Assembly (NCBI GenBank): GCA_016699975.1
Contig: CP064994.1
Span: 711,828-775,827, forward strand
Reading direction: 5' to 3'
Length of the DNA stretch: 64,000 bases
Source: Candidatus Moraniibacteriota bacterium
GTDB taxonomy: Bacteria; Patescibacteriota; Minisyncoccia; Moranbacterales; UBA1568
In this document: positions 4,937 to 16,993 of the stretch, in pieces
Layout of the letters: each line of letters starts with the position of its first letter
Numbering within the stretch: position 1 is the stretch's first letter
Program-made: the position numbers and the translations under genes
Notes under the pieces: model-generated
The model's database searches: none
What the model was told of the DNA's origin: nothing
The model's input: only the letters and a program-made list of their open reading frames with translations

Positions 4937-6282
4937 ACCAAATTTCACCTCCAACTCTCTCGCCTCGCTCGAAACGCCTGCTCTTTGTGGGACGAATCAT
5001 TTTGGGCATTGTGTTTCTCTCGAGTCTCGCTCTCTTTTCTTGGAGCGTTCTCTTCCCGCCGCAGCCACTTTTCTTCGATTTTCGAGATGCCAAACTTTCG
5101 GTGAGCACCCTCAAAAATCCAAGGACATTCCCTCCACCCTTTTCTCCGGGAGGACAATTTAGGGATCAAGATATCCTCACGCTCGATGCTTCGGCGTTCG
5201 GAGAATATACGACGCTCGCTCTTCAATTTACTGCTCTCAAAAATTCTCCACTTGGAAAAGGACGTGTCTCTGTGCGCCGCTCGCAGCAGGCGCACTTCTT
5301 TCCGGAAGGGAGTGGAGCGTCGTTCCCTCCCGGCACTCTCCTCCAAGAAAATGGTTCGTTCTATCAGATCGCACCCGATGGTCGCCGAAAAAAATTTCCG
5401 TCCAAAGAATCTGCGGAGCGACTTGGATTTCGTCCAGAAACATTTCTGCCTGTTCGAAACGAGGATCTTTCTCTCAATCAAGATGGCGGCTTGCTTGAAT
5501 GGGAGCCATCCGCTCTCCCTGAAGGAACATTCGTTCACGCGGACAATACCTACTACGAATGGCGCTCAGGAACACTTCTCCCGTTCGTGAGCGAGAATGC
5601 ATTTCGTGCACGGTTTCGGGATGAGTGGGCCATTAAAAAAGATGCTGCCTTCGTCCGATTAGTGCCGCTTTCGGAAAACTGGCGATCCTTTCCAAGTGGG
5701 ACGCTGTTGTCGTGGGGAGATGGAGTCTTTTTGATGGACCAGACAAGCCCGCGACCTATTCTCGGTGTCGATATATTTTTGTCGCTCGGGTACTCGTGGG
5801 AAGATGTTGTGCCCGCCAATGACGAAGAAATCAGCCTCGAACAAAAAGGGCGATCCGTCGACTTTAGCGCCGCTCACCCCGATGGCACTGTTTTTCACGA
5901 GACGGATACGAATCGTTTCTTCCTCATCCTCAACAAAACAAAACACGAACTCCGTGGAGACGCCATTCGAAACTTTTGGCTCGGAACAAGAAAACCAATC
6001 GCCGTTTCTTCGCAATCACTCACCACTTCCGCCACATGTGATCTTTCCGTCCACTCTTTTCTCTTTTTCGCCCCCACTCTCGAGTGCCGTCTCCCACTTG
6101 AAGCACTCGCAAAATTTCGAGGAGATACGTATGAACTCCGCACGACTTTTCTTGGCGCATCCGCCTTCGAACGCCTCGATGTTTCTTTCGAAGCTGCAGT
6201 AAAGAAAGAAACACTTCTGACCCGTCTTTCCAAACTCAAGAATCGCGTGCTCGCCCGATACCTTCCCACCGCAGAACCCTAG
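4933..6282 (+). CDS. hypothetical membrane-anchored protein
   Basis: 449 aa. N-terminal TM/signal anchor (RIILGIVFLSSLALFSWSVLF). ATGA overlap with the upstream gene suggests translational coupling. No family recognised. Confidence 0.6.
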   Translation: MNQISPPTLSPRSKRLLFVGRIILGIVFLSSLALFSWSVLFPPQPLFFDFRDAKLSVSTLKNPRTFPPPFSPGGQFRDQDILTLDASAFGEYTTLALQFTALKNSPLGKGRVSVRRSQQAHFFPEGSGASFPPGTLLQENGSFYQIAPDGRRKKFPSKESAERLGFRPETFLPVRNEDLSLNQDGGLLEWEPSALPEGTFVHADNTYYEWRSGTLLPFVSENAFRARFRDEWAIKKDAAFVRLVPLSENWRSFPSGTLLSWGDGVFLMDQTSPRPILGVDIFLSLGYSWEDVVPANDEEISLEQKGRSVDFSAAHPDGTVFHETDTNRFFLILNKTKHELRGDAIRNFWLGTRKPIAVSSQSLTTSATCDLSVHSFLFFAPTLECRLPLEALAKFRGDTYELRTTFLGASAFERLDVSFEAAVKKETLLTRLSKLKNRVLARYLPTAEP

Positions 6283-6312
6283 AACTTCCCCAAAATTTTT
6301 TCACTTGGCTTT

Positions 6313-6774
6313 ATGATTTCACGTTTTTCTCATCTGTATTCATCTCTCGAGTTTCGTCTCGTCGCACACCAACTCGTTCGCGATGCAATTTTCTTGTCAC
6401 TCATCGCCTTGATCGGCATCCTTTCGCTCGAAAGCATTCTCCCGGGAACAATCTCTCTTCGATTCGGGATCGTTTTCTTTAGCGCGGGTATCCTCCTTCT
6501 CCTCCTTGCAGAACAAGCGCTCGCCCCTCACACTCTTCCTCCACCAAAAGAAAAAATTCCTTCCAAACGATGGGGGCGCATTCTCTTTTTCGGCTGGTCC
6601 GTTTTCCTTTTTGCAAATGCGCTTGTCGGTTTCCATCCCATCGTTCTCCTTTTCTCAGTGCTCGCAACACTTCTTTCATTCCGACTTCTTCTTACAGAAT
6701 ACCAGGAGGAGAAAACCACTGAAAAAAATTCACTCGTTCCAAAAGAGTCCAACCATAACCGCTCGCTCGTATGA
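6313..6774 (+). CDS. hypothetical integral membrane protein
   Basis: 153 aa with about 4 hydrophobic segments. 4-nt overlap with the downstream glycosyltransferase. Confidence 0.55.
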   Translation: MISRFSHLYSSLEFRLVAHQLVRDAIFLSLIALIGILSLESILPGTISLRFGIVFFSAGILLLLLAEQALAPHTLPPPKEKIPSKRWGRILFFGWSVFLFANALVGFHPIVLLFSVLATLLSFRLLLTEYQEEKTTEKNSLVPKESNHNRSLV

Positions 6775-7921
6775 GGATTGTTGTACAGGCTGCCGACCTC
6801 GATGCGCCCCGTATCGACGGAACCCGCATTTACTTGCTCCGGCTTCTCGAACGTTTTGGCGCGCTCACCCCACAACACGCGTGGCACCTTTTTCATCGAA
6901 AGCCATTTAACCCTGCACTCACTCCTCCTTCATTCAAAAATTATGAGGAACACTGTATTCCGTTTCCCTGTTTCTGGACACAAACGCGCTTCTCCTGGGA
7001 AATAATGCGAAGAAAACCACATCGGCTGTTCATGCCGGTTCAGTCACTTCCTTTCTTTCTCTCCACGGAAACCGAGTCGATCGTGACGATCCATGATCTT
7101 GCTTTCAAAATTTTTCCCAAACATTTTCCCACCAAAGACCTTCGCCGACTCAACTGGTTTACCGACTTTTCGGTACGACAAGGAACGAGACTCATTGCCG
7201 TTTCAGAATCCACGAAGCGAGATATTCTCACTTTCTACCCAGATGTTCCCGAAAAAAAGATTCGTGTTATTCACCACGGTTTCGATCCCATCCCTCCCTC
7301 CACCCAACACCATGCCAGAGAAGAAATGGCGGCGCTCAATTTGTTTCATCTCTCCCCGAAAAACTATGTGCTCTATGTGGGAGCTATTCAGCCACGAAAA
7401 AATCTCCTTCGACTTCTCGATGCTTTTACTGCTTCTGCTGAACGGTTTCCCGAAATGAAACTCGTTCTTGCAGGAGAAGCCGCGTGGATGAGCGAAGCCG
7501 TGTTTGAGGCAGCTCAGCGCCATCCCTTTCGGGACCGCATCGTCATCACCGATCGAGTGTCGTTTCAAATGCGAGCCACCTTGTATCGAAACGCGAGACT
7601 GTTTGTCTTTCCTTCACTGTATGAAGGTTTCGGCCTTCCGATCCTGGAAGCGTTTTCGGCGCGCGTTCCGGTAATTGTCGCTCGCAATTCGAGCCTCACC
7701 GAAGTCGCCGGAAACGCCGCTTTCTTTTTGACGCCCAAGAAAGCAGCGAACTCCAAAGTGCGATCGAAACACTGTGGGAAGACTCAAGAAAACGGGAAGA
7801 TCTGATCGCGCGTGGCACACGAGAGCTGGAGCGATTCTCCTGGGATCGGTGCTCATCCGAAACCGCCTCGTGGATTCTTGGCGATGAGTCTCATTCCTCA
7901 AAGATTCACGCAGGAGAGTAA
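6771..7921 (+). CDS. glycosyltransferase family 1 (GT4-type), frame broken near the 3' end
   Basis: Contains FPSLYEGFGLPILEAFSARVPVIVARNSSLTEVAG, the classic GT1 EX7E region. After the T5 run at 7725-7729 the conserved C-terminus (DAQESSELQSAIETLWEDSRKREDLIARGTRELERFSWDRC...) continues in frame 1 to a TAA at 7919-7921. Confidence 0.8.
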
Positions 7922-8210
7922 GGAAAGAAAATATCCAAAGGACGAGAGTTTTACAAAAATATCACAGCGATTCGAAAAACTTTTTATAAAGAGCGGTCGC
8001 GAAGAGTGAACGACAAGATCAGCATTTCACAACAGAACAAAATTTTGAAAGTGTTTTTCCTTCTCACCGTAAAAATATTCCCGAAGCAATGGGGAACATT
8101 TTTGAGTGAGTCTGCAGAAAAGACTCGAGACGAATGCGGACTCTCTCTCCAAAAATCGTGAACCCTGTGGGAACAAGAAGGGTGCTCGGGAAAGAGGGCA
8201 GAAAAAAATT

Positions 8211-8921
8211 TTAGTGAAGAACAGTGCCTATCCCCCGCTCGCCAAGCAAAACGCGGCGCAAATTTTCGGTATCGGCTCCATCCATGACAGTGACTGAAAA
8301 CCCCTTCTCTTCGGCAAGTTTCGAAGCAATTGGATCGAAAGGCACATTCATTCCAGGACGCCAGACATCTCCAATGAGGGCGCGGTATTTTTTCCACGAC
8401 AGGGATTCAAATCGTGTCGCATCCGTGTATTCCTTGGGATTCCGGTCATAGACACCGTCCACATTGGAGAGATTGAGGAGAGAAGAAAAGCCCAAATATT
8501 CCGCAAGCAAAACAGCAATGTAATCCGTTGAGAATCCAGGTCTCCATCCACCCGCCACCAAGATCGGTTCTTTCACGTGTAAAAAGTCTTCGAGATCGTG
8601 CGGGTTCGTGTTAATTTTCGGAAACGCAAACTCGCGAAACACCGTTCGCAGAAAGTGTGCATTCATGCGCGTCGCATGGATGCCAAGCCAATCCTTGTCT
8701 TCGTCTTCGATATGGTGAATCTGTCCCGCAGCATTGATATATCGCCTCGCGGTCTTCCCTCCACCAACGACCAGAACAAACGAGCAACCGTCTCCGATAC
8801 GTTCAACGATCGTTTCGTAAAATCGACCGATAAATCCCGTATCGATTTCATCAGGAACAACAAGCGAACCCCCAACCGACAGTAAAAATTTTTTCGGCGT
8901 CATGCGTGAAGTAGAGTTCAA
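8211..8921 (-). CDS. pyrH: UMP kinase, archaeal/amino-acid-kinase type
   Basis: 236 aa. Motifs LSVGGSLV, VVGGGKTARRY, LVAGGWRPGFSTD and SNVDGVYDRNP are typical of archaeal-type UMP kinases. Confidence 0.8.
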   Translation of the reverse strand: MNSTSRMTPKKFLLSVGGSLVVPDEIDTGFIGRFYETIVERIGDGCSFVLVVGGGKTARRYINAAGQIHHIEDEDKDWLGIHATRMNAHFLRTVFREFAFPKINTNPHDLEDFLHVKEPILVAGGWRPGFSTDYIAVLLAEYLGFSSLLNLSNVDGVYDRNPKEYTDATRFESLSWKKYRALIGDVWRPGMNVPFDPIASKLAEEKGFSVTVMDGADTENLRRVLLGERGIGTVLH

Positions 8922-10156
8922 GATTTAAGAAGATTTACCACTTCTTCAAACGAACACATCGTCGCCTCAGATTTCGATCGTTCTTTGACCTCAGCCCCAC
9001 CATGTTGAAGCGAGCGTTTCGAAAGGACGATTCGGTACGGAATACCAATAAGATCACTGTCGGCAAATTTTTCTCCCGCACTCCCTTCCCGATCGTCAAA
9101 CAAGACATCAATCCCAAGATGAGCAAGTTTCTCGTACCACAAAAGGGCCACTCGGTCTTCGCCAAGGGAGAGAAGATGCGCCCGAAACGGCGCAACCGAC
9201 TTGGGCCAGACGATGCCACGATCGTCACACAAGGTTTCCACAATCGTCCCCATGAGGCGCGTCGGCCCGATGCCATAACTCCCCATGACGACGGGTTTTG
9301 CTCTCCCACTCTGGTCCATATAGAAAAGACCAAGCGCTTCCGAAAATCGTGTGCCGAGCTTAAAAATATTGCCAACTTCTATCGAAGTTTTCTTTTCAAG
9401 AGCCGCTCGGTCGAGCCCCAGATCGGACAAGACCTCGTCGGTGTAGACTTCTTCGTTCACGGCGATATTCTTTTCTCGTGAAAGATAAATTGTATCTTCT
9501 CCTGCGTCGCTCAACGCCTGAAATTCGTGACTGTATTTGGAAAAAATACCGCCACTCGCGAACGTTTTAAAGGTGATCGCACCGATCCCCACGCGCTCGA
9601 AGATTGTTGTGTACGCTTCTGCACACCGTTCGTAAAACGCATCAAGATCTGCTTCGTTCTCATTGAAAGAATAGAGATCTTTCATCAAAAATTCGCGCCC
9701 GCGCATAATCCCGCTTTTCGCTCGTTCTTCGTTCCGAAACTTCGTTTGTATCTGATAGCTGTAGACCGGCAAATCGCGATATGACGAGATATGTTGTTTC
9801 ATGATCGCCGTGATCGGCTCTTCGTGGGTAAACCCAAGCCCAACCTCTGTCCCATTTTTGAGATGAGTTTTAAACCAATTGTCGACCGCGTCGTCGCTCC
9901 AACGGTTCGTCGCCTCCCACATCTCGGGATTTTGGAGAGCGCTTAAGAAAACTTCCCGCCCCCCGATTCGATCCATTTCTTCTCGGATGATCGCTTCAAT
10001 TTTTCGAAGTACGCGGAGTCCGAGCGGCAGAAATTCGTAGACGCCCGCCATTTCTTTGTGGATGAAGCCGGCCCGAATAAGCAATTGCGCATTCCGACTC
10101 ACTTCATCTGTCGGATTTTCGCGCCTCGTTTTCGTAAAAAGTTCAGATTGCTTCAT
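8918..10156 (-). CDS. proS: prolyl-tRNA synthetase (short form without the insertion editing domain)
   Basis: 412 aa. The N-terminus QSELFTKTRRENPTDEVSRNAQLLIRAGFIHKEMAGVYEFLPLG and class II motifs (FRNEERAKSGIMRGREF) match ProRS. Confidence 0.9.
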   Translation of the reverse strand: MKQSELFTKTRRENPTDEVSRNAQLLIRAGFIHKEMAGVYEFLPLGLRVLRKIEAIIREEMDRIGGREVFLSALQNPEMWEATNRWSDDAVDNWFKTHLKNGTEVGLGFTHEEPITAIMKQHISSYRDLPVYSYQIQTKFRNEERAKSGIMRGREFLMKDLYSFNENEADLDAFYERCAEAYTTIFERVGIGAITFKTFASGGIFSKYSHEFQALSDAGEDTIYLSREKNIAVNEEVYTDEVLSDLGLDRAALEKKTSIEVGNIFKLGTRFSEALGLFYMDQSGRAKPVVMGSYGIGPTRLMGTIVETLCDDRGIVWPKSVAPFRAHLLSLGEDRVALLWYEKLAHLGIDVLFDDREGSAGEKFADSDLIGIPYRIVLSKRSLQHGGAEVKERSKSEATMCSFEEVVNLLKS

Positions 10157-10371
10157 AGGACTTAGGACTATTGGACACGCAGAAATAAAGATGATCTTTA
10201 TTGAGAGCTTCCATCATCTTATCGGGTTCTTCCCTCGAAAGCAACCGATCTCTCATGAAGCCAAGAAGAGCCTCGAAACATCATTTATTCAAAGGATTAG
10301 AGTAAATTCTCATCTTTGTAAAAATAAGAAAAAGAATACTGCTCTAACCTTTTTGGTTCATGATAATGTAA

Positions 10372-10758
10372 AAAAGTAATACGCGCACCAATATCCAAGC
10401 TGAACATTCTCTTTCAGGAAAAAGAGTACCGTTACTTTTTATCTTTACGGGACAGGAACTGTACCAACATTACAAAGGAGGAATTGACGAAGTCATTGTC
10501 GTAGCATGCCACAGTGAAACTTTAGAGGAATTCGTTGTTTACAAATCAATGTACAATGAAATTGAGTGTGATCGAGGCTCTTTCTGGGGAAGACCAACAT
10601 TCATGTTCTTCGAAAATGTCATCGTTGATGGCAAAGTAAAATCACGTTTCACACTATTGAAAAAGAAGGGGGATGTATCCTGCTATTGTAGAGAAATTGA
10701 TAAAAAGCAATCCCTTGTCTCGAATTCGTTCTATCCTATACAAGTCCCTTTATTTTAA
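10372..10758 (+). pseudogene. DUF1653-like remnant without a canonical start codon
   Basis: The frame-0 reading ...GQELYQHYKGGIDEVIVVACHSETLEEFVVYKSMYNE...FWGRPTFMFFENVIVDGKVKSRF matches the DUF1653 pattern (YRHYKG..Y.V...H.ET.E..VVY..LY....W.RP..MF). There is no ATG/GTG/TTG between the upstream stop (10369) and the conserved core, only a CTG at 10459. Confidence 0.45.
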
Positions 10759-10845
10759 GCAGGGTCTACTATAGATATTTTTCATATATATTTATAGGGA
10801 GAAACGGCTTGTGTAAGCTACAAAATTCCATAGGATCTTTTGAAA

Positions 10846-10868
10846 AAATCGCCAAAAAATGGCGATTT
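10846..10868 (+). terminator. hairpin (AAATCGCC-N7-GGCGATTT) flanked by A/T runs, possible bidirectional terminator
   Basis: 8-bp perfect stem. TTTCT follows on the plus strand and T6 on the minus strand. It lies 90 nt after the DUF1653 remnant. Confidence 0.3.
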
Positions 10869-11055
10869 CTCAGAAATGCTGGGACGATGGGGTACACATG
10901 GGAACAACTGCACCCCCCGTATTCTCTCAAAATGGCTCGAATGTGGCAATGGGCTGGAGGTAATGCGAGAACGGATGGAGCGGGTTATGACGCGGTAGTT
11001 TTTTGATAAATCTACGAGAAGATGACACAACAAAGCCATAAAATAGTCACGGATG

Positions 11056-11085
11056 TTGACTTCTACTGATTAAACGTGCTATTGT
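11056..11085 (+). promoter_or_regulatory. sigma70-like promoter candidate for the nucleotide cassette
   Basis: TTGACT (11056-11061), an 18-nt spacer, then TATTGT (11080-11085). About 60 nt downstream an AAAGGAGAG RBS sits 4 nt before the ATG at 11144. Confidence 0.3.
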
Positions 11086-11143
11086 ATAGAGTCTTAATTT
11101 TAAGACGAGTATCTTACCAATTGAAGAGAAAAAGGAGAGAATC

Positions 11144-11641
11144 ATGCATGAAACAGCAAAAATATTGATCGCGCAGATTATCGCGAACAAGAAAGAAGAA
11201 GTCGAAAGAACCGAGCAAGCTCGTCAAGTTTCACTCAAAGACGCTCAAGAAGCGGAAGGGGCGATGATTTCTCGCTATGATACTTTTCTTGAAGAAGCTC
11301 AATATCTCGCGGGCGGACAGAATAAACGGTTGCTCGAAGCAAAAGCTGTTCTCGCTTTACTCGAGAGCCTCCTTCAGAGGGATGCCGATGTTTCACGTCG
11401 GGCATCCATTGGTTCTATAGTAACTATCGAGAATATCGAGACTACGGAGATAAAGAAATTCCTTCTCGTTTCTGAAGAAGCGGGCGGCGGAGTTTTTTCG
11501 TGCCACCCTGATGAGGGTGAGAAAATTTCAGCCGTAAGCCCGTCTTCTCCAATTGGCAAGGCGCTTTTCGGAAAAGAAAGCAGGGAAGAAATCGAATGCC
11601 CCATGCTCAAAAGAGCATGGGAAATCAGCGAAATTCAATGA
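11144..11641 (+). CDS. GreA/GreB-family (Rnk/Gfh-like) RNA polymerase secondary-channel factor paralog 1
   Basis: 165 aa. N-terminal predicted coiled coil and a C-terminal domain with IGSIVTIENIETTE...AVSPSSPIGKALFGKESREEIE, resembling the GreA C-terminal domain (IS..SP.G.AL.GK..GD). The coiled-coil tip reads EGAMISRYDT rather than GDLSENAEY. Confidence 0.6.
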   Translation: MHETAKILIAQIIANKKEEVERTEQARQVSLKDAQEAEGAMISRYDTFLEEAQYLAGGQNKRLLEAKAVLALLESLLQRDADVSRRASIGSIVTIENIETTEIKKFLLVSEEAGGGVFSCHPDEGEKISAVSPSSPIGKALFGKESREEIECPMLKRAWEISEIQ

Positions 11642-11650
11642 TAGCGGAGA

Positions 11651-12232
11651 ATGCTCATGCAAAACGACAGTCCGATGATTTTAGTTATAGAAAGCATAAA
11701 TTGTGTTGGTAAAACAACCCTCGCTAAATCCATTGCTTCAAAACTCGGCTTCCGGTATCTCTACACACCACAGTCGCCTCTTTCGGTGATTCGTAAAGAG
11801 ATAGAGTCCCTGGATGATTCAAATACCCGGTTTTTCTACTACCTGACTTCGGTTATTGCCGTTCAGAGGAAAATCCGATCGGATATCGATTTGGGAAGGA
11901 GTGTTGTTATTGATCGCTATATTCACTCGACTCTCGTCATGCACCGCGTGCTTGGCGTTGATGTGTCCTGTGTGAGTATCGAAAAATTGCCCATTCTCTG
12001 GCCGACGGTTTCTGTGCTCCTCACGGCTACGTCGGAAACGAGAGTTGAAAGAAGAAACAAGCGTGATGGTTCGCAGGATTATGACCAGCGCATTGAGCAA
12101 TCTACTGGATTGCTTGATCGAGCGCAGGAGGCTTTCGCGGATTCTCATCAATGGTCGCTTGTGCTTGAAACTGATGGCCTTTCGGCGGAGCAAGTTGAGG
12201 CACAAGTGACACTACTTTTACAGGAGCAATAG
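11651..12232 (+). CDS. thymidylate-kinase-like nucleotide kinase (P-loop)
   Basis: 193 aa. Walker A-like VIESINCVGKTTLA, a Tmk-like VVIDRYIHST (DRY) motif and a lid-region RVERRNKRDG. Confidence 0.65.
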   Translation: MLMQNDSPMILVIESINCVGKTTLAKSIASKLGFRYLYTPQSPLSVIRKEIESLDDSNTRFFYYLTSVIAVQRKIRSDIDLGRSVVIDRYIHSTLVMHRVLGVDVSCVSIEKLPILWPTVSVLLTATSETRVERRNKRDGSQDYDQRIEQSTGLLDRAQEAFADSHQWSLVLETDGLSAEQVEAQVTLLLQEQ

Positions 12233-12234
12233 CC

Positions 12235-13191
12235 ATGTATAATGTCTTTGAAGAATTACTCGCGCAAGGAAAAGTGGAGACGACTCGTCTCAACAGCCTT
12301 CGCGTGAAGCTTCACGTACCGTGCCAGTGGACATGCAACTTTTGTCACATGGAAGGCAATCCTTCATCGCAACCGATTCGAAATGACATGCAGTTTTCCG
12401 GTGCGCTCGTTCGTTTCCGGGATTGTTTCGGATTTACCGAAGTACATTTCACTGGAGGCGAACCGTCAATTCATCCCGAGATTACCCAGTTCATTGCGAA
12501 AGCAAAGAGCTTGGGATTCAAGGTGAAAATGACAACGAATGGACAGTCAAAGCACTCGCGATATTTCGAGTGTATATGGTCGGGACTCGATGAGCTCAAC
12601 ATGAGTGTTCACACTCTTGACCCAGCGGAATTGGGGAAGATTATGTCACCGCCCAAAGACGCGGCGTGGGGAAAAAAAGCGATTGAAAAACAAGTTGGTC
12701 TCATTGAGGCTCTCAATGGAAAGGTTCGTCTCAAGATCAATACGTGCATTGGCGAAACGGAACAGCCGGCAATCGCGCTTGCTGATTTTGTGAGGCGCAG
12801 GGATATTTCGTGGCGTCTCATGAACGTGCTGGAGATTCCAGAAATCTCGTATGCCTCTCTCGCAAGAGCGTGCCAAACGCTCGGAGCAACTCCAGTGCGG
12901 GCGTCGGTCATTCGAGGAAGTTCGAGTTGTTCCATTGATATGCGCTGTGAAGATGGGTTCGCTTTCAAGCTGAAACTCATCCAGCCGCATTTCTTGGAAG
13001 GCATGTGCGCCAATTGCGAATTGAGAGCGTATGGCGGATGTTATGAATTCGCATACGGACCAAGACTTGAAATGGAACGCGGCATGCTCATGGTGCGAAA
13101 CTGTGTGCACCGCGACGGTCCGCCATTCTCCCTTCCCATTCACGCCTACTTCTCTCACCCCATTGCTCAACAATTGGGCGAAGAACTGTAG
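12235..13191 (+). CDS. radical SAM enzyme, MoaA/viperin-class
   Basis: 318 aa. CX3CX2C motif (LHVPCQWTCNFCHMEG), FTGGEPS, MTTNGQ and LNMSVHTLDP, plus a C-terminal CANC...C arrangement parallel to the auxiliary cluster of MoaA. Confidence 0.8.
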   Translation: MYNVFEELLAQGKVETTRLNSLRVKLHVPCQWTCNFCHMEGNPSSQPIRNDMQFSGALVRFRDCFGFTEVHFTGGEPSIHPEITQFIAKAKSLGFKVKMTTNGQSKHSRYFECIWSGLDELNMSVHTLDPAELGKIMSPPKDAAWGKKAIEKQVGLIEALNGKVRLKINTCIGETEQPAIALADFVRRRDISWRLMNVLEIPEISYASLARACQTLGATPVRASVIRGSSSCSIDMRCEDGFAFKLKLIQPHFLEGMCANCELRAYGGCYEFAYGPRLEMERGMLMVRNCVHRDGPPFSLPIHAYFSHPIAQQLGEEL

Positions 13192-13216
13192 AGAAGAAGC
13201 TCGCAACAAAAACCTA

Positions 13217-13248
13217 AAGGCTAACGCAACGCGTTAGCCTTTTCTTTG
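13217..13248 (+). terminator. rho-independent terminator between the radical SAM and CYTH genes
   Basis: AAGGCTAACGC-AAC-GCGTTAGCCTT (11-bp perfect stem) followed by TTCTTTG. Confidence 0.55.
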
Positions 13249-13288
13249 AGAAAAATGCGCTAACATTCCCTCAAGTAAAGCCATATTT

Positions 13289-13810
13289 ATGGAAATAGAG
13301 CTCCGGGCAAGCGTTGACGATCCCGACGCAATAAGGAACGCCTTGGCGACACAAGCAGAGCACAGGGGAACGTCAAACGAACATGATTTTTATCTTCGCC
13401 ATGAAAGCGACAGAGATCGCTCGCTCATTTTGCGTATTCGGCGAAAAGAAAGCGGGTCATTGCTAACGTTCAAAGGCAAAGCTCTCGGCGATGATACCGC
13501 ATGGCCGGATGTTGATATTCCACTCACCGATTCCGACAATCTCCAACAGCTTCTTCTTGGAAGTGGTTACGTAAAAGTAGTTGAAATCAAGAAACGCCGA
13601 TCAAGCTATCGTCTCGAAGATTTTGAAATCAATGTTGATGAAATAGAAAATCTCGGGGTCTTTGTCGAAATTGAAGGACGAGGCGACGAGGAGGGTCGAG
13701 CAAAGATAGAGGAAAAAATAATGAGTCTTCTTGTGAGTCTCGGGATTCAAAACGAAAATATTATCCGAAAGGGATATGTCACCCTTATGCTTGAACAGTC
13801 TTCGATATGA
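13289..13810 (+). CDS. CYTH-domain protein (CyaB/ThTPase-type triphosphate tunnel metalloenzyme)
   Basis: 173 aa. N-terminal MEIELR (ExExK-type motif with R). The beta-rich pattern LRIRRKESGSLLTFKG...YRLEDFEINVDEIENLGVFVEIEG is typical of class IV adenylyl cyclase / CYTH proteins. Confidence 0.75.
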   Translation: MEIELRASVDDPDAIRNALATQAEHRGTSNEHDFYLRHESDRDRSLILRIRRKESGSLLTFKGKALGDDTAWPDVDIPLTDSDNLQQLLLGSGYVKVVEIKKRRSSYRLEDFEINVDEIENLGVFVEIEGRGDEEGRAKIEEKIMSLLVSLGIQNENIIRKGYVTLMLEQSSI

Positions 13811-14286
13811 AAGACACGCCACTCCTTTTTCTTCGGAAAGATTATTTGGCGCTTGAGAAAAATATTGACGCGCTCAAAAACAACCTGAAAACGGTTGGCT
13901 TTGAAGTTGGGGAAATGTCGCATCAGAGCTCGGAAACGTGGCATGACAATTACGGTTTTGAAGAAGCCGATCGAGAAAGAAAAAGACTCGCCGGCACGCT
14001 CGAAGAATTGAAAAAAGTTTACGCGCAGGCTGAAATAGTTGAGCCGTCAGTTCACGCGGAGCACGTCTCTCTCGGATCGAAAGTCACGATACAGAATGTA
14101 GACACCCACGAGGAAAAAGTTGTTTTCGTTGGGAGCTACATGGTTCTCAAAAAAACAGACCCGAACGAATTTTCTTATGCCGCGCCTTTCGTGGCTCCGC
14201 TTATGGGCGCGTCTGTCGGCGAGGTGAGAGAAATAAAAATCGGGGGAGTGTTATCGCGGATTAAGGTTGTGGATATTCGTGAGTGA
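13807..14286 (+). CDS. GreA/GreB-family (Rnk/Gfh-like) RNA polymerase secondary-channel factor paralog 2
   Basis: 159 aa. ATGA overlap with the CYTH gene. N-terminal coiled coil with tip SSETWHDNYGFEEADRE. The C-terminal domain VSLGSKVTIQNVDTHEEKVVFVG...YAAPFVAPLMGASVGEVREIKI is GreA C-terminal-domain-like. Confidence 0.7.
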   Translation: MKDTPLLFLRKDYLALEKNIDALKNNLKTVGFEVGEMSHQSSETWHDNYGFEEADRERKRLAGTLEELKKVYAQAEIVEPSVHAEHVSLGSKVTIQNVDTHEEKVVFVGSYMVLKKTDPNEFSYAAPFVAPLMGASVGEVREIKIGGVLSRIKVVDIRE

Positions 14287-14316
14287 AAGACGATGAGGAA
14301 AAAAATATTCTGATCT

Positions 14317-15090
14317 TTATTTCAATTCCTCAATTAAACAATCCGATCCCTCGAAACATTCGTAGAAAATAGAGATTTCCTTTATAACGCGACCCGGACG
14401 ATTTGATGAGACAGACGTGTAAATGTTAATTCTATTTTCATATTTAAGTAGACGAAAAAAATCTGTATTATCTCTTTTATTTTTATTCATTTCTTTATCT
14501 TTGATGGTTGGGAAATACGAGATTGAACTTAAATTGTACAAATATTGTGAAGTTTTTCCGGCTGGAACAGGAAGCGTATTGCTGTCTGGAATAAGATGTC
14601 CGCCTTGCCCATTTACCACGAAATAAATATCATCCCACGATGTTAATGGTCGATCATAATCAACCAGTGCGTCAATGTATAGATACGCCCTTGAAAATTG
14701 TCCTCTTGATTTGTAGCTTTTTTTAATACCATCAAAATTAACTGTAGCAGGTTTATCATTTACACAACCACCAAGATGACACTCTGAAGAGATTTTTATA
14801 TTCCTAATATTAGGGTTGGGATTTGCTCCTTTTATTGCACTATAATCCGGGAGCTCGGAGGGTAACGCCTTTTGCCATAGCTCTTCCGAAGTTTTTATTT
14901 TCTCTTCTAACTCCTTTATTTCCTCAGCTCGTTGCTTTATTTTTTCATCAATGTCCCGCGAAATATTTTTCTCTATCACAACTCTTTTATTAGCCTCATT
15001 AGTCAAACCTCCAATATATAGACCCAGCAAAGTAGTTATGGAAGCTACTATTATCAAAATTAAATACGCCATCAGATCATTTTTTTTCAT
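14317..15090 (-). CDS. hypothetical membrane-anchored protein with coiled coil
   Basis: 257 aa. N-terminal TM (AYLILIIVASITTLLGLYIGG), a charged helical stretch (KIKQRAEEIKELEEKIKTSEE), then an unknown globular domain. AT-rich codon usage. Confidence 0.5.
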   Translation of the reverse strand: MKKNDLMAYLILIIVASITTLLGLYIGGLTNEANKRVVIEKNISRDIDEKIKQRAEEIKELEEKIKTSEELWQKALPSELPDYSAIKGANPNPNIRNIKISSECHLGGCVNDKPATVNFDGIKKSYKSRGQFSRAYLYIDALVDYDRPLTSWDDIYFVVNGQGGHLIPDSNTLPVPAGKTSQYLYNLSSISYFPTIKDKEMNKNKRDNTDFFRLLKYENRINIYTSVSSNRPGRVIKEISIFYECFEGSDCLIEELK

Positions 15091-15400
15091 ATCCCTTCCT
15101 TAATGTTATCGGTAATACTGTTACTGCAAGCAGAATCACCCAAAATAGGCAAAGAGCAGTTATTATCTGGTGCATTATCTTTGGTAAAGGTTTCCAAAAC
15201 TTCCAAAATCTCTTATCATATGCGGTTGCATGTAAAAAAATGGCTCCTATTGGGAGAATAAATGTATTTGAAACAACCGCGATTGACCAAGAATAATAAT
15301 CAAACTTCATCTCTAAGAGTATAAATAGAGTTAAATAACAGAAAGCAAACAGCGACGTAAAGCTGAAACACGCCCATTTTTTTTCTTGATTTGATTTCAT
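15077..15400 (-). CDS. hypothetical small integral membrane protein
   Basis: 107 aa with 3-4 hydrophobic segments. 14-nt overlap with the downstream gene. Confidence 0.45.
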   Translation of the reverse strand: MKSNQEKKWACFSFTSLFAFCYLTLFILLEMKFDYYSWSIAVVSNTFILPIGAIFLHATAYDKRFWKFWKPLPKIMHQIITALCLFWVILLAVTVLPITLRKGYEKK

Positions 15401-15479
15401 ATCGAGGTAAATAGCCTACATTATGAGATTCTCGGTTTTCATACTCGCTCGCGCTTCCACTTAATAATCTATAGGGACA

Positions 15480-16741
15480 TTATGTGTGGAATCTATGCTT
15501 AAACGCTCGTCTAAAACCAGCGTCTTCAGCTTCTTTTACGGTAAATGCGTAAAATTCACCTTTACTTTTCGTGATTACAGTTCTGTCATACTGCTGATCC
15601 ATTGGTAAGTGGTATATTTTCGTATTACCAGACTCGTCATAATTTTTGTTGCATTTAATTCTCGGGAAATTCCCAATCGGCTTGTTTTCGATGATCTCAA
15701 CACTTAATGCCTTTGCCATTTCTTTTGCTCTTTCGGATAAAGATATAGATGTAAAAATATTGGTCGCAGTTTATTTTCAGTTAAAAACCTTGCAAACTCT
15801 TCAAATGTTTTCGGTTTATTATGACTCCCAAAGTTTTTAATCCAATATTCCATGGTTGTACCAAACAATTGAAAGATGTGTTTTTCGTGTATTTCTTTAT
15901 AGTGCGCCCAATATTTACACTGAATGATACAAACCTCATTACCTTTCTTGGCGATAATATCTCTGCCTAAATCATCGAACCCGTCAATTATACCTTTGTA
16001 TTCGATAGAATAGCCTTTCTGTTCATAGATGTATCCGACGTACATCTCATAATCTCTTCCGATTGCCCATTTTGATTTATTTCTATTTTTTAGGTATCTG
16101 TCCAATGCTTTTTGATTTCTCTCCACGGAAGGGAGCTTTTTATATTCTTCAGGAGTTAAGAAATTTTTAACACGGTCTTCGCTATTATCGTCATCTCCAT
16201 CGTCATCAATCTTTACAGGAATTTCTTCATTTTCATCCTCAGCAATTAAATCAGTTAGCCAAGGAAATAGCTTTTCAAAGTAGTTAATTTTATAGTTCAG
16301 TATTTTATTTTCCCTTCTCAAAACTTTTTTTTCACTTTTTACCTCACGAACGATTTCCGCTGTTGTATGGGCTGGATGTTTTTTTGTGTTTAGATATTTT
16401 TCAAACTTTGAATCTTTCAATGCAAAATACTCAGAAAATGCTTCTGCTAACCAAGGAAAACCCATTGATTTTTGAGCAGCTATTTTTTTGACTTCTTCTT
16501 TATCTTGCGCAACTTTGTGATTCCATGATTCTACTTTTGATACCCAATTTTTTCTATCTTCTTCAACTTTCAATTCATGCATTTTTATAGAATTTTCCAA
16601 GCTATCTAATTTTGGTTTCAGGTCAAGATACTTTTTGGAATTAGAAACTGCCTCGCTGATCCACGAAATTACTTTCCAAAGTACGGAAATCAAAATGATG
16701 ATAAGTATCCATGCGTAATCTTCCATAAATGTTTCTGGCAC
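15480..16741 (-). CDS. Mrr-type (PD-(D/E)xK) restriction endonuclease with an N-terminal TM/coiled-coil region, frame broken at a T-run
   Basis: Core GRDYEMYVGYIYEQKGYSIEY...DLGRDIIAKKGNEVCIIQCKYW matches the Mrr_cat pattern (D...QCK). The ORFs 15704-16741 and 15480-15719 join through the A5/T5 run at 15743-15747 to give ...PIFFTSISLSERAKEMAKALSVEIIENKP.... The C-terminal tail is KIYHLPMDQQY...FTVKEAEDAGFRRA. Confidence 0.7.
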
Positions 16742-16780
16742 AGAGTTTTAAGCACTTGTCTACTATCCAATCCTTTCCCT

Positions 16781-16993
16781 CTAAGACGAACTTTTTTCAC
16801 GATCAAGAATCCTCATCACATCCCCCCTCCGATACCGCCTATCCCCTCGCGTCCCAAACCGGATCGCTTTCAAAAATCCTTTGTTGTCCCAGTTACGGAG
16901 CGTGTTCGGGTGACAATGCAAAATCTCACATGCCTCCTGAAGCGTCAGAATCTCTGATGCTTTTTCTTTGGGTTGTCTTTTCATAGGTTTCAA
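16781..16993 (-). CDS. excisionase-family helix-turn-helix DNA-binding protein
   Basis: 70 aa. LTLQEACEILHCHPNTLRNWDNKGFLKAIRFGTRGDRRYRRGDV fits the Xis/MerR-type HTH of mobile elements. Confidence 0.7.
   Translation of the reverse strand: MKPMKRQPKEKASEILTLQEACEILHCHPNTLRNWDNKGFLKAIRFGTRGDRRYRRGDVMRILDREKSSS

Follow-up and report, generated by a model that had tools for sequence, protein, structure and literature searches.

A co-conserved five-gene cassette of Patescibacteria combines a radical SAM enzyme, a CYTH protein, and a kinase with two Gre-like factors

Gene content and predicted control elements

The DNA analyzed here, referred to as the window, is a 64-kb (64,000-nucleotide) stretch of a Candidatus Moraniibacteriota genome. 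Its open reading frames at 11144-14286 include five co-directional genes on the forward strand, encoding a type 1 Gre-like factor (g1, 11144-11641, 165 aa), a Tmk-like NMP kinase with a DRY motif (g2, 11651-12232, 193 aa), a two-cluster radical SAM (rSAM) enzyme (g3, 12235-13191, 318 aa), a CYTH/triphosphate-tunnel enzyme with an N-terminal E-x-E-x-R (g4, 13289-13810, 173 aa), and a type 2 Gre-like factor with the tip S-E-T-W-H-D-N (g5, 13807-14286, 159 aa). Gaps of 9, 2, and 97 nt separate g1/g2, g2/g3, and g3/g4, respectively, while g4 and g5 share an ATGA overlap. These coordinates confirm the gaps and overlap given in a preliminary description of this DNA, and every motif named there is present (CQWTCNFC, GGEPS, TTNG, four C-terminal cysteines, DRY, EIELR, EGAMISRYDT, and SSETWHDNYGFEE).

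A promoter-like site (11056-11085, forward strand) lies upstream of g1 and consists of a -35 hexamer TTGACT (11056-11061), an 18-nt spacer, and a TGn-extended -10 hexamer TATTGT (11080-11085). This site and an upstream ribosome-binding site had been proposed before. Our consensus scan recovered the former with 9 of 12 consensus matches plus the TG, and both hexamers are kept in the related loci L013 and L014, where the spacer has diverged. Directly 3′ of the -10 hexamer we read a perfect 16-nt palindrome, GTCTTAATTTTAAGAC (11091-11106), which is identical in L013, has one mismatch in L014, and may act as an operator-like element or a 5′-leader hairpin. The Shine-Dalgarno-like AAAGGAGAG (11131-11139, forward strand; GGAGAG core at 11134-11139) lies 4 nt 5′ of the g1 ATG and is kept in L013. 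As proposed earlier, a hairpin resembling an intrinsic terminator and a T-run are found between g3 and g4 (13216-13250, forward strand; 12-bp stem at 13216-13242, 3-nt loop; fold z = -2.8). In L007, L008, L009, L013, and L016 a hairpin and T-run of unrelated sequence follow the rSAM stop codon at the same place; L014 and L015 have a local stem-loop and T-run there, with minimum-energy folds dominated by longer-range pairing. Both promoter and terminator are consensus or structure predictions.

Conservation and distribution

We found that the cassette lies in a block common to other strains and species (10877-14288; blastn and pairwise alignment), with 99.3% identity to L001 and 88% identity to L013. 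Similarity ends at both edges of this block and picks up again only at 16798, past a variable region. The five-gene order also occurs in L001-L004, L008-L013, L016-L018, L100, and L106, at rSAM identities down to approximately 46%, and it persists in divergent Patescibacteria with rSAM identities of 45-50%. Two loci with 30% rSAM identity (L023 and L030) contain kinase, Gre-like, and CYTH genes in a different arrangement. All five genes are under purifying selection, with dN/dS values of 0.07-0.18 relative to L012 and L013. Since dN/dS is low and the arrangement was found again in many independent contigs, our data indicate that the cassette is more than a chance association. The five genes thus form a co-conserved unit, as had been proposed, that is not confined to the window.

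The invariant core of this unit is the rSAM-CYTH pair. The rSAM gene adjoins a CYTH gene in 78 of 80 genome loci, including those of Streptomyces and Streptococcus, and this obligate pairing spans Actinomycetota, Bacillota, Patescibacteria, and MAGs labelled Gammaproteobacteria. Sixty-six of the 80 rSAM-CYTH loci carry neither the kinase nor Gre-like genes, which indicates that the core does not need factors of the RNA polymerase (RNAP) channel. The view of the cassette as a single unit must therefore be narrowed: the five genes are co-conserved, but the core mostly occurs without the kinase and Gre-like genes and far beyond Patescibacteria. One or two Gfh1-like proteins accompany the core in Patescibacteria and in a small number of other lineages. 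The rSAM family is small and patchy (56 clusters at 90% identity; approximately 153 representatives at 50% identity with E <= 1e-30), suggesting that the cassette is accessory.

Radical SAM, CYTH, and kinase proteins

The g3 protein matches Radical_SAM in a domain search, and family alignments (23 and 57 sequences) place CxxxCxxC-H-x-E-G at residues 30-41, GGEP at 74-77, and a C-terminal set of C258-x2-C261-x7-C269 and C290. The best Foldseek match of its AF2 model (pLDDT 92.5) is MoaA, over the full length (TM 0.60), and the top fold matches also include the RiPP maturase SuiB. Profile comparison with the PDB returned AbmM (2e-19), MoaA (5.5e-16), and viperins (1e-7 or weaker). AbmM is a sugar-modifying rSAM enzyme of a nucleoside-antibiotic pathway (PMC12691670). 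The preliminary description had placed g3 in a MoaA/viperin class and had anticipated that it lies outside orthologous MoaA. Indeed, despite the fold match, g3 is far under the curated MoaA equivalog cut-off (78 vs 325 bits), which rules out orthologous MoaA; a viperin is ruled out as well (63.7 bits vs a curated cut-off of 180). Alignment to viperin structures covers approximately 185 columns of the N-terminal barrel only, and the second-cluster domain of g3 falls outside it. Having failed both curated cut-offs, g3 is neither MoaA nor viperin, and these data indicate that it is a member of a distinct two-cluster rSAM family with a MoaA/AbmM-type second-cluster domain.

R23, K167, N169, and R194 of g3 align with R17, K163, N165, and R192 of MoaA; PDB entry 2fb2 carries mutations at MoaA R17, R266, and R268. 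All 57 aligned rSAM sequences keep R23, N169, R194, and R277, while the invariance of K167 is limited to the alignment of 23. Together with the MoaA fold match, the AbmM sequence match, and neighboring nucleotide hydrolase genes in other loci (NT5C, Nudix, and HD), the kept MoaA-type positions suggest a nucleotide substrate.

The earlier CYTH assignment of g4, which opens with EIELR, holds: g4 matches Pfam CYTH (2e-20, 73.8 bits) and exceeds the cut-off of TIGR00318 cyaB (97 vs 58 bits). Its nearest solved relative is the archaeal triphosphate tunnel metalloenzyme Saci_0718 (8e-11), which we take to be a hydrolase rather than a cyclase; PH1819 is also close, and class IV cyclases match at 3e-5.

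The g2 protein matches Pfam Thymidylate_kin (39 bits) and scores 34.8 bits against TIGR00041, below the cut-off of 83. Its P-loop in the window reads ESINCVGKT, compared with EG[VC]D..GK[TS] in all other copies, so its Walker A motif is atypical and departs from the Tmk-type P-loop described before. PADLOC models PDC-M51B (1.2e-26) and VakA (7e-14) match g2, supporting its placement with defense-associated kinases, in line with the viperin-linked kinase suggested before.

Gre-like proteins and their fusions

Both g1 and g5 match the Pfam GreA_GreB C-terminal domain (31.7 and 33.9 bits, respectively; cut-off 26.9), and they are homologous to each other (hhalign probability 96%). The predicted structure of g1 (AF2, pLDDT 84) is a hairpin coiled coil (helices 3-38 and 45-78) with a beta C-terminal domain; all 13 Foldseek hits with a probability of 1.00 are Gre-family entries, and the model fits RNAP-bound Gfh1 (3aoh) with TM 0.58/0.63. 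Family profiles place Gfh1 at the top of the PDB for both proteins across the full length, at 2.6e-7 for g1 and 1.3e-13 for g5 (GreA at 1.8e-9, also full length). Against TIGR01462, g5 reaches 47.6 bits, below the cut-off of 139, and its family comprises 33 clusters followed by a gap to canonical GreA. These data indicate that g1 and g5 each span a complete Gre-family fold, with Thermus Gfh1 as the nearest match.

In both families conservation peaks at the coiled-coil tip, where each has a motif of its own (SRYD or SxWHDN); in the g1 family it reads GAM(I/E)SRYD, with S43 and D46 invariant. An invariant tip Asp aligns with GreA E44 in both families, and in most members a second acidic residue precedes it by four positions. 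The window g1 lacks the first acidic tip residue; given this loss and the mutated kinase P-loop, the window copy of the cassette may be partly degenerate. The two proteins had been described as probable non-cleaving factors distinct from housekeeping GreA. Proximity to non-cleaving Gfh1 favors the first point, but the tip Asp and second acidic residue keep it from being established. As to the second, some members of both families adjoin NusA, Mur ligase, or MetRS genes without the cassette (L102-L104), and the Gre-like proteins may be general-purpose Gre factors of individual lineages that the cassette recruited.

The proposed coupling of the rSAM enzyme to Gre-like proteins gained support from three fusion proteins found outside the window, which cover both tip types. 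P0090 and P0129 fuse the rSAM enzyme to a type 1 Gre-like protein (tips ESRFDT and ESRYDT), and P0115, which is flanked by a kinase gene and a CYTH gene, fuses it to a type 2 protein (tip SSETWHDN).

Genomic context

Directly 3′ of the cassette is a low-GC region that varies between strains and contains an Mrr-like nuclease, consistent with the island context described before. Furthermore, an integrase adjoins L106, type I R-M genes lie near L008, and a kinase-rSAM-Gre-like version is located 1.2 kb from a phage portal gene (L092, with phage structural genes). These neighbors and the PADLOC matches of the kinase suggest a conflict context. None of the PADLOC models fits the whole cassette as a system, nor does any hit the CYTH or Gre-like proteins, and our full-text literature searches found no description of the rSAM/CYTH/Gre-like combination.

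Discussion

We propose that the cassette is an accessory, conflict-type gene set for making or processing a modified nucleotide, with a coupling to the RNAP secondary channel, and we give this reading a probability of approximately 0.5. Most likely, the rSAM and CYTH enzymes together act on a nucleoside triphosphate to yield a modified nucleotide. The MoaA-like Arg/Lys set of the rSAM enzyme would hold the triphosphate while radical chemistry takes place on the sugar, the CYTH enzyme would hydrolyze or cyclize the triphosphate of the substrate or product, and the Tmk-like kinase would contribute nucleotide supply or re-phosphorylation. The Gfh1-like proteins would dock at the secondary (NTP-entry) channel, and the chemistry could thereby be aimed at, gated by, or sensed through RNAP, a link that is suggested by the fusion of enzyme and Gre-like factor in other microbes. 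Its effect on RNAP may be poisoning, protection, or sensing, and its role may be defense or antagonism. Weighing against this reading are the 66 of 80 loci with neither kinase nor Gre-like genes, the Gre-like family members outside the cassette, the lack of PADLOC hits for the CYTH and Gre-like proteins, and the possible degeneracy of the window copy.

It is possible, if unlikely, that the cassette is a viperin-type antiviral system with self-immunity, in which the rSAM enzyme, together with the kinase and CYTH protein, would produce a chain-terminating or polymerase-inhibiting nucleotide against phage and the Gre-like proteins would only shield host RNAP, e.g., by analogue excision from backtracked complexes. 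Viperins linked to kinases, or fused to a triphosphatase or cyclase domain, have been documented (bioRxiv 10.1101/2023.09.13.557418), and ThmC offers a precedent of a resistance NTPase inside an rSAM and kinase nucleoside cluster (PMC12691670). The VakA match of the kinase, the acidic tip residues, and an rSAM match to PADLOC pVip models at 64 bits agree with this. However, g3 fails the viperin cut-off and has a second-cluster domain outside the viperin alignment, the best structural relative of the Gre-like proteins is anti-cleavage Gfh1 rather than GreA, and one version adjoins phage structural genes. Three rSAM::Gre-like fusions exist, whereas we know of no immunity factor covalently fused to its producing enzyme.

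We consider it doubtful that the genes form a small nucleoside-antibiotic cluster directed against other bacteria, with the rSAM and CYTH enzymes building the nucleoside, the kinase performing a step, and the Gre-like proteins providing target protection or resistance. ThmABC (rSAM, kinase, and NTPase) makes 4′-thiothymidine (PMC12691670), and AbmM is the best PDB sequence match of g3. In Streptococcus, rSAM and CYTH genes share an operon, beside a relaxase, with two Rgg regulators, an AlaRS-like gene, two ATP-grasp ligases, and an MFS transporter, which resembles an exported-metabolite operon; in Paenibacillus the pair lies after genes for an ABC transporter and a glycosyltransferase. Yet genes for export, ligation, or tailoring are absent from the window and from the other Patescibacteria loci, and the Gre-like fusions favor an intracellular, RNAP-linked role.

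A second-messenger module, in which the CYTH protein as a class IV-type cyclase and the rSAM enzyme would produce a modified cyclic nucleotide for RNAP-bound Gre-like receptors, by analogy with ppGpp/DksA, is quite improbable. The TIGR00318 cyaB score and the W/H/Y/R-rich tips, which could bind a ligand, would suit it, as would a Crp-type cNMP-binding regulator and response regulator downstream of the L107 fusion locus, but that neighborhood occurs in one locus only, class IV cyclases match g4 much more weakly than a triphosphate tunnel metalloenzyme does, and we know of no receptor function for any Gre factor. Still less probable is that the rSAM enzyme modifies Gre-like tip residues post-translationally, as in the tips of EF-P, eIF5A, and EF2, which would create a specialized RNAP active-site probe. 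The highly conserved tips contain rSAM-modifiable W, H, Y, and R, three proteins join the enzyme to its putative substrate, and a RiPP maturase, SuiB, ranks among the best fold matches of g3; against this stand the 66 of 80 loci without a Gre-like gene, the invariant MoaA triphosphate-binding positions, and partners that are nucleotide enzymes. Ordinary housekeeping neighbors (GreA, thymidylate kinase, MoaA for molybdenum cofactor, and adenylate cyclase), suggested by automatic annotations of relatives in public records ("cyclic pyranopterin phosphate synthase," "GreA/GreB family factor") and by the housekeeping contexts of some Gre-like members, are largely refuted by unmet curated equivalog cut-offs (MoaA 78/325, dTMP kinase 35/83, GreA 48/139), the small and patchy distribution, gene order kept over distant lineages, the fusions, a canonical GreA (GDLSENAEY) 1.4 kb from the cassette in L030, and, as a weak test that agrees with the preliminary description, the lack of MoaB/C/D/E-like ORFs in the window.

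Should the RNAP-linked nucleotide reading be true, the fusion of enzyme and Gre-like factor would point to an undescribed link between a modified nucleotide and transcription.

Organization of the cassette

The cassette consists of five co-directional genes on the forward strand, spaced as tightly as the preliminary description had proposed: a Gre-like type 1 gene (11144-11641), a Tmk-like kinase gene (11651-12232), a radical SAM (rSAM) gene (12235-13191), a CYTH gene (13289-13810), and a Gre-like type 2 gene (13807-14286). The first three are separated by 9 and 2 nt, 97 nt lie between the rSAM and CYTH genes, and the CYTH and Gre-like 2 genes are joined by an ATGA overlap. All five genes are under purifying selection, with dN/dS values of 0.07-0.18 against two diverged copies. 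Upstream, a sigma-70-like promoter is predicted on the same strand, comprising a -35 element TTGACT (11056-11061), an 18-nt spacer, and a TG-extended -10 element TATTGT (11080-11085), and a Shine-Dalgarno sequence, GGAGAG, precedes the first gene. Both had been pointed out before, and both promoter hexamers are kept, with a changed spacer, in two related loci, L013 (block 88% identical) and L014 (71%). Directly 3' of the -10 element is a perfect 16-nt palindrome, GTCTTAATTTTAAGAC (11091-11106), which persists in both L013 and L014 and could be an operator, that is, a putative regulator site. An Rfam scan of 10100-14400 at E ≤ 1 gave no match, and therefore no known riboswitch or leader is present in this region.

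Between the rSAM and CYTH genes lies a GC-rich hairpin with a 12-bp stem (13216-13242), followed by a T-run, the element previously described as splitting the cassette. A different hairpin and T-run occur at the same spot, straight after the rSAM stop codon, in loci L007, L008, L009, L013, and L016; L014 and L015 also have a local stem-loop and T-run there, with longer-range pairing dominating their minimum-energy folds. Since an element of this kind recurs in other loci, the division into the Gre-like 1, kinase, and rSAM genes on one side and the CYTH and Gre-like 2 genes on the other is a conserved feature and not an accident of the window's own sequence.

The radical SAM enzyme resembles MoaA and viperin

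We found that the rSAM enzyme contains a CxxxCxxC motif followed by H-x-E-G, a GGEP motif, and C258, C261, C269, and C290 arranged as CxxC-x7-C-x-E-x2-Y-G-x-R ... C. At least 55 of 57 sequences keep C30, C34, C37, C258, C261, and C290, and the same holds for the extra C269. This pattern matches the MoaA-type layout of an N-terminal CxxxCxxC and a C-terminal three-cysteine site, with predicted [4Fe-4S] binding. The C-terminal parallel with MoaA that had been drawn earlier was borne out by the alignments and by a full-length fold match: an AlphaFold model of the enzyme (pLDDT 92.5) retrieved MoaA first in Foldseek, over the whole length (TM 0.60), with BlsE, SuiB, and AbmM as further matches, while viperin structures matched over the N-terminal barrel only (approximately 185 columns). 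When the family profile was compared with PDB sequences, AbmM (2e-19) ranked above MoaA (5.5e-16) and viperin-like proteins (1e-7 or weaker).

The enzyme scored far below the cut-offs of the curated MoaA models TIGR02668 (77.9 against 325 bits), TIGR02666 (69.7 against 284), and NF001199 (71.8 against 231), and of the curated viperin model NF038283 (63.7 against 180). The PADLOC pVip model, for which no PADLOC cut-off is given for comparison, matched with 64 bits over residues 26-201 only. Like MoaA, the enzyme has a two-cluster layout with CxxC...RL...C at the C-terminus, and R23, K167, N169, and R194 align with MoaA R17, K163, N165, and R192 in the HMMER alignment. Unlike MoaA, its family carries the signatures C-H-x-E-G and C-x7-C-x-E-x2-Y-G-x-R, has His at the positions of R71 and D128, lies near no Moco genes, and is partnered by CYTH instead of MoaC. 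The preliminary description had seen no other Moco genes in the window, and none turned up: phmmer with approximate E. coli queries, which is a weak test, found no MoaB/C/D/E-like ORF in the 64-kb window, and no MoaB/C/D/E was present in approximately 100 neighbourhoods examined. We rejected identity with MoaA on the failed cut-offs and this context. Identity with true viperin was rejected on the failed cut-off and on the C-terminal second-cluster domain of approximately 120 residues, which is MoaA-like and contains four invariant cysteines. Viperin is a single-cluster enzyme whose C-terminal extension binds CTP; it makes 3'-deoxy-3',4'-didehydro-NTP and protects against phage. Since the curated cut-offs are missed and the defining C-terminal features are lacking, the cassette belongs to neither family, although its sequences suggest that it would operate as a nucleotide system of the viperin or MoaA class.

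R23, N169, R194, and R277 show no variation across 57 members of the family, which come from four phyla, and the invariance of K167 applies to a 23-sequence alignment only. In MoaA, R17, R266, and R268 are the mutated residues of PDB entry 2fb2, and we take them to clamp the triphosphate in the MoaA-GTP structure. Because MoaA-like triphosphate-binding positions are conserved, we infer that the substrate is an NTP or NDP, on which the enzyme would perform sugar-centred radical chemistry.

The CYTH protein and the kinase

The CYTH protein exceeded the cut-offs of both Pfam CYTH (73.8 bits, cut-off 23.2; 2e-20) and TIGR00318 (97.2 bits, cut-off 57.95). It opens with EIELR, an ExExK/R-type first strand that had already been recognized, and on these matches it is a canonical CYTH protein. 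The kinase had been described as having a Tmk-type P-loop. Its superfamily assignment holds (Pfam Tmk superfamily model, 39 bits, cut-off 27), while the dTMP kinase equivalog TIGR00041 scored only 34.8 bits against a cut-off of 83, and the P-loop is not intact in the window, where it reads SINCVGKT with the first Gly of GxxxxGK[ST] replaced. The best matches of the kinase are two defence-associated PADLOC models, PDC-M51B (91.6 bits, 1.2e-26) and VakA (7e-14), and the kinases of related loci behave likewise. PDC-M51 is a candidate system of A and B, of which B, the kinase, was matched alone; the other four proteins match no PDC-M51 model, and no PADLOC model matches the CYTH protein or either Gre-like protein. 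Thus the PADLOC scan that had been recommended found no model covering the cassette as a system, with matches to the kinase and the rSAM enzyme only.

We compared the window with the near-identical cassette of L002, using the part before an indel at approximately 13247. Ten substitutions fall at 11582-12214, nine G>A and one C>T, and all but one of them also distinguish the window from L001, the other near-identical copy. Six G>A changes within 25 nt (11675-11699) turn the kinase Walker A motif EGVDCVGKT into ESINCVGKT. A pattern this clustered and strand-biased would fit hypermutation of the deaminase type, damage to the DNA, or an artefact of assembly. Another copy may be a better choice for experiments than the window cassette, because the kinase P-loop of the latter is altered and the tip of its Gre-like 1 protein carries an Ile, a residue common to the whole Moraniibacteriota clade.

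Two Gre-family proteins with remodelled tips

A comparison by hhalign detects homology between the two Gre-like proteins with 96% probability. For both family profiles the best solved relative over the full length is Thermus Gfh1 (2.6e-7 for type 1 and 1.3e-13 for type 2), followed by GreA and GreB, also over the full length, with Rnk marginal. The model of Gre-like 1 is composed of a hairpin of two helices (residues 3-38 and 45-78, approximately 35 residues each) and a beta domain; it gave 13 Foldseek matches at probability 1.00, all of them Gre-family proteins, and the best superposition was with RNAP-bound Gfh1. Both proteins are predicted to adopt the two-domain Gre fold of a coiled-coil hairpin and a C-terminal globular domain, on profiles for both and on the model for Gre-like 1. 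They share with the secondary-channel factors Gfh1, GreA, and GreB this full-length coiled coil, the beta C-terminal domain, and one or more acidic tip residues.

Unlike GreA and GreB, both proteins fall below the curated GreA/GreB cut-offs (Gre-like 1 at best 29.3 bits against 145, Gre-like 2 at best 47.6 against 139), and SRYD and SxWHDN replace DxxE at the tip. Pfam GreA_GreB_N matches neither protein and has no precomputed match in any member of either family. A break in E-value separates each family from canonical GreA: type 1 goes from 1e-13 to 6e-6, and type 2 from 1e-30 to 9e-15. Sequence conservation in both families peaks at the tip, which reads G-A-M-(E/I)-S-R-Y-D in type 1 and S-x-W-H-D-N in type 2; the window tips are GAMISRYD and SSETWHDN, and the DxxE pair D41/E44 of GreA is not matched. 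The invariant Asp of each family aligns with GreA E44, and a second acidic residue at i-4 is found in Gre-like 2 and in most type 1 relatives, the window type 1 protein having its Ile there. Because the Gre fold is matched and the tips are altered but conserved, these are, at the level of sequence, Gre-family proteins with remodelled tips, which may stimulate, block, or act in some other way at the active site. Gfh1-like factors bind the RNAP secondary channel and inhibit catalysis, and D41/E44 are needed for cleavage stimulation by GreA and GreB. The earlier view of GreA-like proteins with non-canonical tips, akin to Rnk or Gfh factors, stands as regards the Gre architecture, the missing DxxE, and the likeness to Gfh1. 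We rejected the Rnk-like reading, since both proteins have a coiled coil of full length and Rnk, whose coiled coil is shorter, is a weak partial match that aligns over 106 columns only.

A phmmer search of the 64-kb window with the single E. coli GreA sequence found no second greA, but it is an insensitive test, because this query misses even the two Gre-like proteins. In L030, a locus with a canonical GreA (GDLSENAEY tip) 1.4 kb from the cassette, the cassette's Gre factor is therefore an extra one. A few Gre-like members stand alone beside NusA, Mur ligase, or MetRS (L102-L104). L102 and L103 (1700-6940) show a conserved arrangement of NusA, an H+-pyrophosphatase, a Gre-like 1 relative with the tip GAMQSHSDT, and a Mur ligase, and some Patescibacteria may use a divergent Gre-like 1 relative as their general Gre protein. 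At 5001-6727 of locus L105, a Gre-like 2 gene (tip SETWHDN) occurs with a Tmk-like kinase gene, after which come a 204-aa ORF without annotation and a gene fusing Nudix and methyltransferase parts. Since rSAM and CYTH are absent there, the Gre-like/kinase pair may also serve another enzyme.

Fusions and distribution

In contrast to known Gre factors, both Gre-like types share an operon with, or are fused to, an rSAM enzyme. An exhaustive search identified three proteins in which an rSAM enzyme carries a C-terminal Gre-like module. P0090 and P0129 have type 1 tips (ESRFDT and ESRYDT), and P0115 has a type 2 tip (SSETWHDN). Kinase and CYTH genes flank P0115, and after these come genes for a response regulator, a regulator of the Crp type, and a Nudix protein. 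Because fusions with both Gre-like types to the same rSAM family exist, the predicted partnership, physical or functional, has strong evidence behind it.

We found that CYTH lies directly beside rSAM in 78 of 80 genome loci (family HMMs), and Gre-like and kinase genes in 13 and 12 of the 80, respectively. CYTH is thus the obligate partner of this rSAM family, which comprises 56 clusters at 90% identity and approximately 153 representatives at 50% identity (E ≤ 1e-30). The gene-neighbourhood search that had been proposed also shows the five-gene order recurring across lineages. It occurs in contigs that carry the labels Moraniibacteriota, Paceibacterota, Yonathbacteria, and Saccharibacteria as well as in metagenomic contigs, and the rSAM identity falls as low as approximately 46%. 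One Gre-like gene is inverted or dropped in L014, L015, L019, L021, L022, and L100. Two Gammaproteobacteria-labelled MAGs contain kinase, Gre-like 1, CYTH, and rSAM genes in rearranged order (rSAM identity 30%). L092, a 62.7-kb IMG/VR contig, carries kinase, rSAM, and Gre-like 1 (tip QSRYDT) genes and no CYTH gene at 5468-7372, downstream of an exonuclease gene and 1.2 kb from a portal gene (PHROG 113, 2e-67). The nearby phage portal gene indicates that the module also travels on phage or prophage.

The numerous Streptomyces loci contain rSAM and CYTH only, near XRE/TPR-type regulators. Nucleotide hydrolases are further neighbours of rSAM loci: NT5C in L030, Nudix in L059, and a weak HD match in L023. 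In the Streptococcus mitis group (L025-L029 and L042; for example L029, approximately 4800-11100) the pair is part of an Rgg-Rgg-rSAM-CYTH-AlaRS-like-ATP-grasp-ATP-grasp-MFS operon, which adjoins relaxase and mobilisation genes and has the look of a mobile cluster that makes an aminoacyl- or peptidyl-nucleoside. Locus L101 (539-7119) holds two rSAM-CYTH pairs, a Tmk-like kinase, a type 1 Gre-like protein (tip GAMQSHSDT), a SET-domain protein, and a 549-aa HATPase_c protein. L012 and L013 are two diverged whole cassettes from a single MAG (MAG_322); at the nucleotide level they match the window to 91% and 88%, respectively, and they represent either a true duplication or a strain mix in the bin.

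Genomic surroundings

Among genomes, MAGs of Candidatus Moraniibacteriota (Patescibacteria/CPR) are the nearest relatives. Across the block 10877-14288, identity reaches 99.3% with L001 and 88% with L013, and similarity stops at both borders. Downstream of the cassette, a strain-variable, low-GC stretch of 2.5 kb (14289-16797; 35-39% GC) contains three small or unknown ORFs, including small membrane-protein-like ones, and an Mrr-type (Mrr_cat) nuclease at 15704-16741. The same slot in L001 is occupied by one 1262-aa ORF with a weak PADLOC PD-Lambda-4_A match, and similarity returns at 16798 with an HTH_17/MerR-type gene. The cassette therefore adjoins a strain-variable hot spot, which looks like one for defence or cargo genes, in agreement with the accessory island beside a nuclease-bearing element that had been suggested before.

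On the upstream side, 10877-10998 is a remnant of sequence that in L001 is located at the 3' end of an FAD-protein gene. This segment, just 5' of the cassette, is also a copy of a dispersed repeat of approximately 120 nt with the highly conserved core GGGGTACACATGGGAAC...TGGCTCGAATGTGGCAATGGGCTGGAGGT...GAACGGATGGA. Further copies are found three times within 5 kb in L013 (390-490, 2916-3037, and 4653-4775) and in L001 (8643-8764); the repeat has no Rfam match, and secondary structure analysis gave no supported fold. Flanking repeats that would mark an insertion were sought around the cassette, and only short, chance-level matches were seen. From the prolyl-tRNA synthetase gene to the conserved block, approximately 700 nt (10157-10876) contain no convincing gene. 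Since synteny with L001 breaks within this stretch, it suggests a deletion or rearrangement scar.

Proposed function and alternatives

We put the odds at about even (approximately 0.5) that the cassette is an RNAP-coupled modified-nucleotide system. In this model the rSAM and CYTH enzymes would generate or process a modified nucleotide, starting from an NTP, the kinase would feed the pathway, and the Gre-like proteins would bind the RNAP secondary channel and so connect the chemistry to transcription. The effect could run as delivery or poisoning, as gating, or as sensing. A more specific and tentative proposal is that the Gre-like proteins are RNAP-docking modules that place the nucleotide-modifying rSAM enzyme at the mouth of the NTP-entry channel, where the modified nucleotide might be fed into the active site or the enzyme might be switched by the state of the polymerase. 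The modules would then be separate subunits in the window and fused to the enzyme elsewhere.

A rather unlikely alternative is a viperin-like antiviral system that makes a chain terminator, with the Gre-like proteins conferring self-immunity. As in systems of pVip with a VakA/CMPK2-type kinase, an rSAM enzyme of the MoaA/viperin neighbourhood sits beside a Tmk-superfamily kinase, its likely substrate is a nucleotide triphosphate, and the setting is accessory and island-like; viperin-kinase partnerships and fusions of viperin with triphosphatases or cyclases are documented (bioRxiv 10.1101/2023.09.13.557418). Unlike pVip, the cassette enzyme has the four-cysteine second-cluster domain at its C-terminus, an obligate CYTH partner, and linked or fused Gre-like proteins.

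It is improbable that the cassette is a nucleoside-antibiotic cluster. AbmM of albomycin biosynthesis (PDB 8wm2) is the best PDB sequence match of the rSAM enzyme and shares its CHxEG motif and a similar C-terminal Cys/RL/CL pattern, yet the confident alignment covers approximately 107 N-terminal residues only. ThmABC combines an rSAM enzyme, a kinase, and a nucleoside triphosphatase to make 4'-thiothymidine, the NTPase providing self-resistance (PMC12691670), and these are the same three activity types as in the cassette, compared by described activities alone. The AbmM and ThmABC clusters contain no Gre-like genes, and the window contains no export genes. Full-text literature searches found no description of the rSAM-CYTH pairing or of the rSAM/CYTH/Gre-like combination, and only the one around AbmM gave a useful precedent.

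We give a slimmer chance to a modified cyclic-nucleotide signal. The CYTH protein has the family strand and model matches in common with CyaB, and class IV adenylate cyclases are among its solved relatives (3e-5). Unlike CyaB, it is closest to the archaeal 'triphosphate tunnel metalloenzyme Saci_0718' (8e-11) and to PH1819, not to the Yersinia cyclase, and unlike other CYTH enzymes its type is obligately paired in genomes with one rSAM family. Slighter again is the prospect that the rSAM enzyme modifies the Gre-like tip, for which the fusions and the conservation of the tips could speak, and against which stand the triphosphate-binding positions of the enzyme. That housekeeping genes are merely adjacent here is hardly credible beside the fusions and the recurring gene order, even with lone Gre-like genes next to NusA.

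Under the RNAP-coupled model, nucleotide-analogue chemistry of the viperin, MoaA, or AbmM kind would be tied directly to the RNAP active site. The new element would be dedicated, sometimes fused, secondary-channel factors in a nucleotide-modifying rSAM conflict system. We know of no earlier case of Gre-family proteins as dedicated, even covalent, partners of an enzyme that makes a small molecule. If the Gre-like proteins really tether the enzyme to RNAP, the system would be categorically new. It would rest on a new principle, in which a channel-tethered enzyme poisons or monitors transcription, and which would be used by episymbiotic Patescibacteria and at least one phage-like element. The conservative outcome, a new viperin-like system with self-protection via Gre-like factors, would extend the known repertoire. 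The uncharacterised rSAM family with its obligate CYTH partner occurs in Streptomyces, oral streptococci, and Patescibacteria and will probably yield new nucleoside chemistry. In candidate-phyla bacteria, about whose accessory biology very little is known, the cassette represents a function-rich system.
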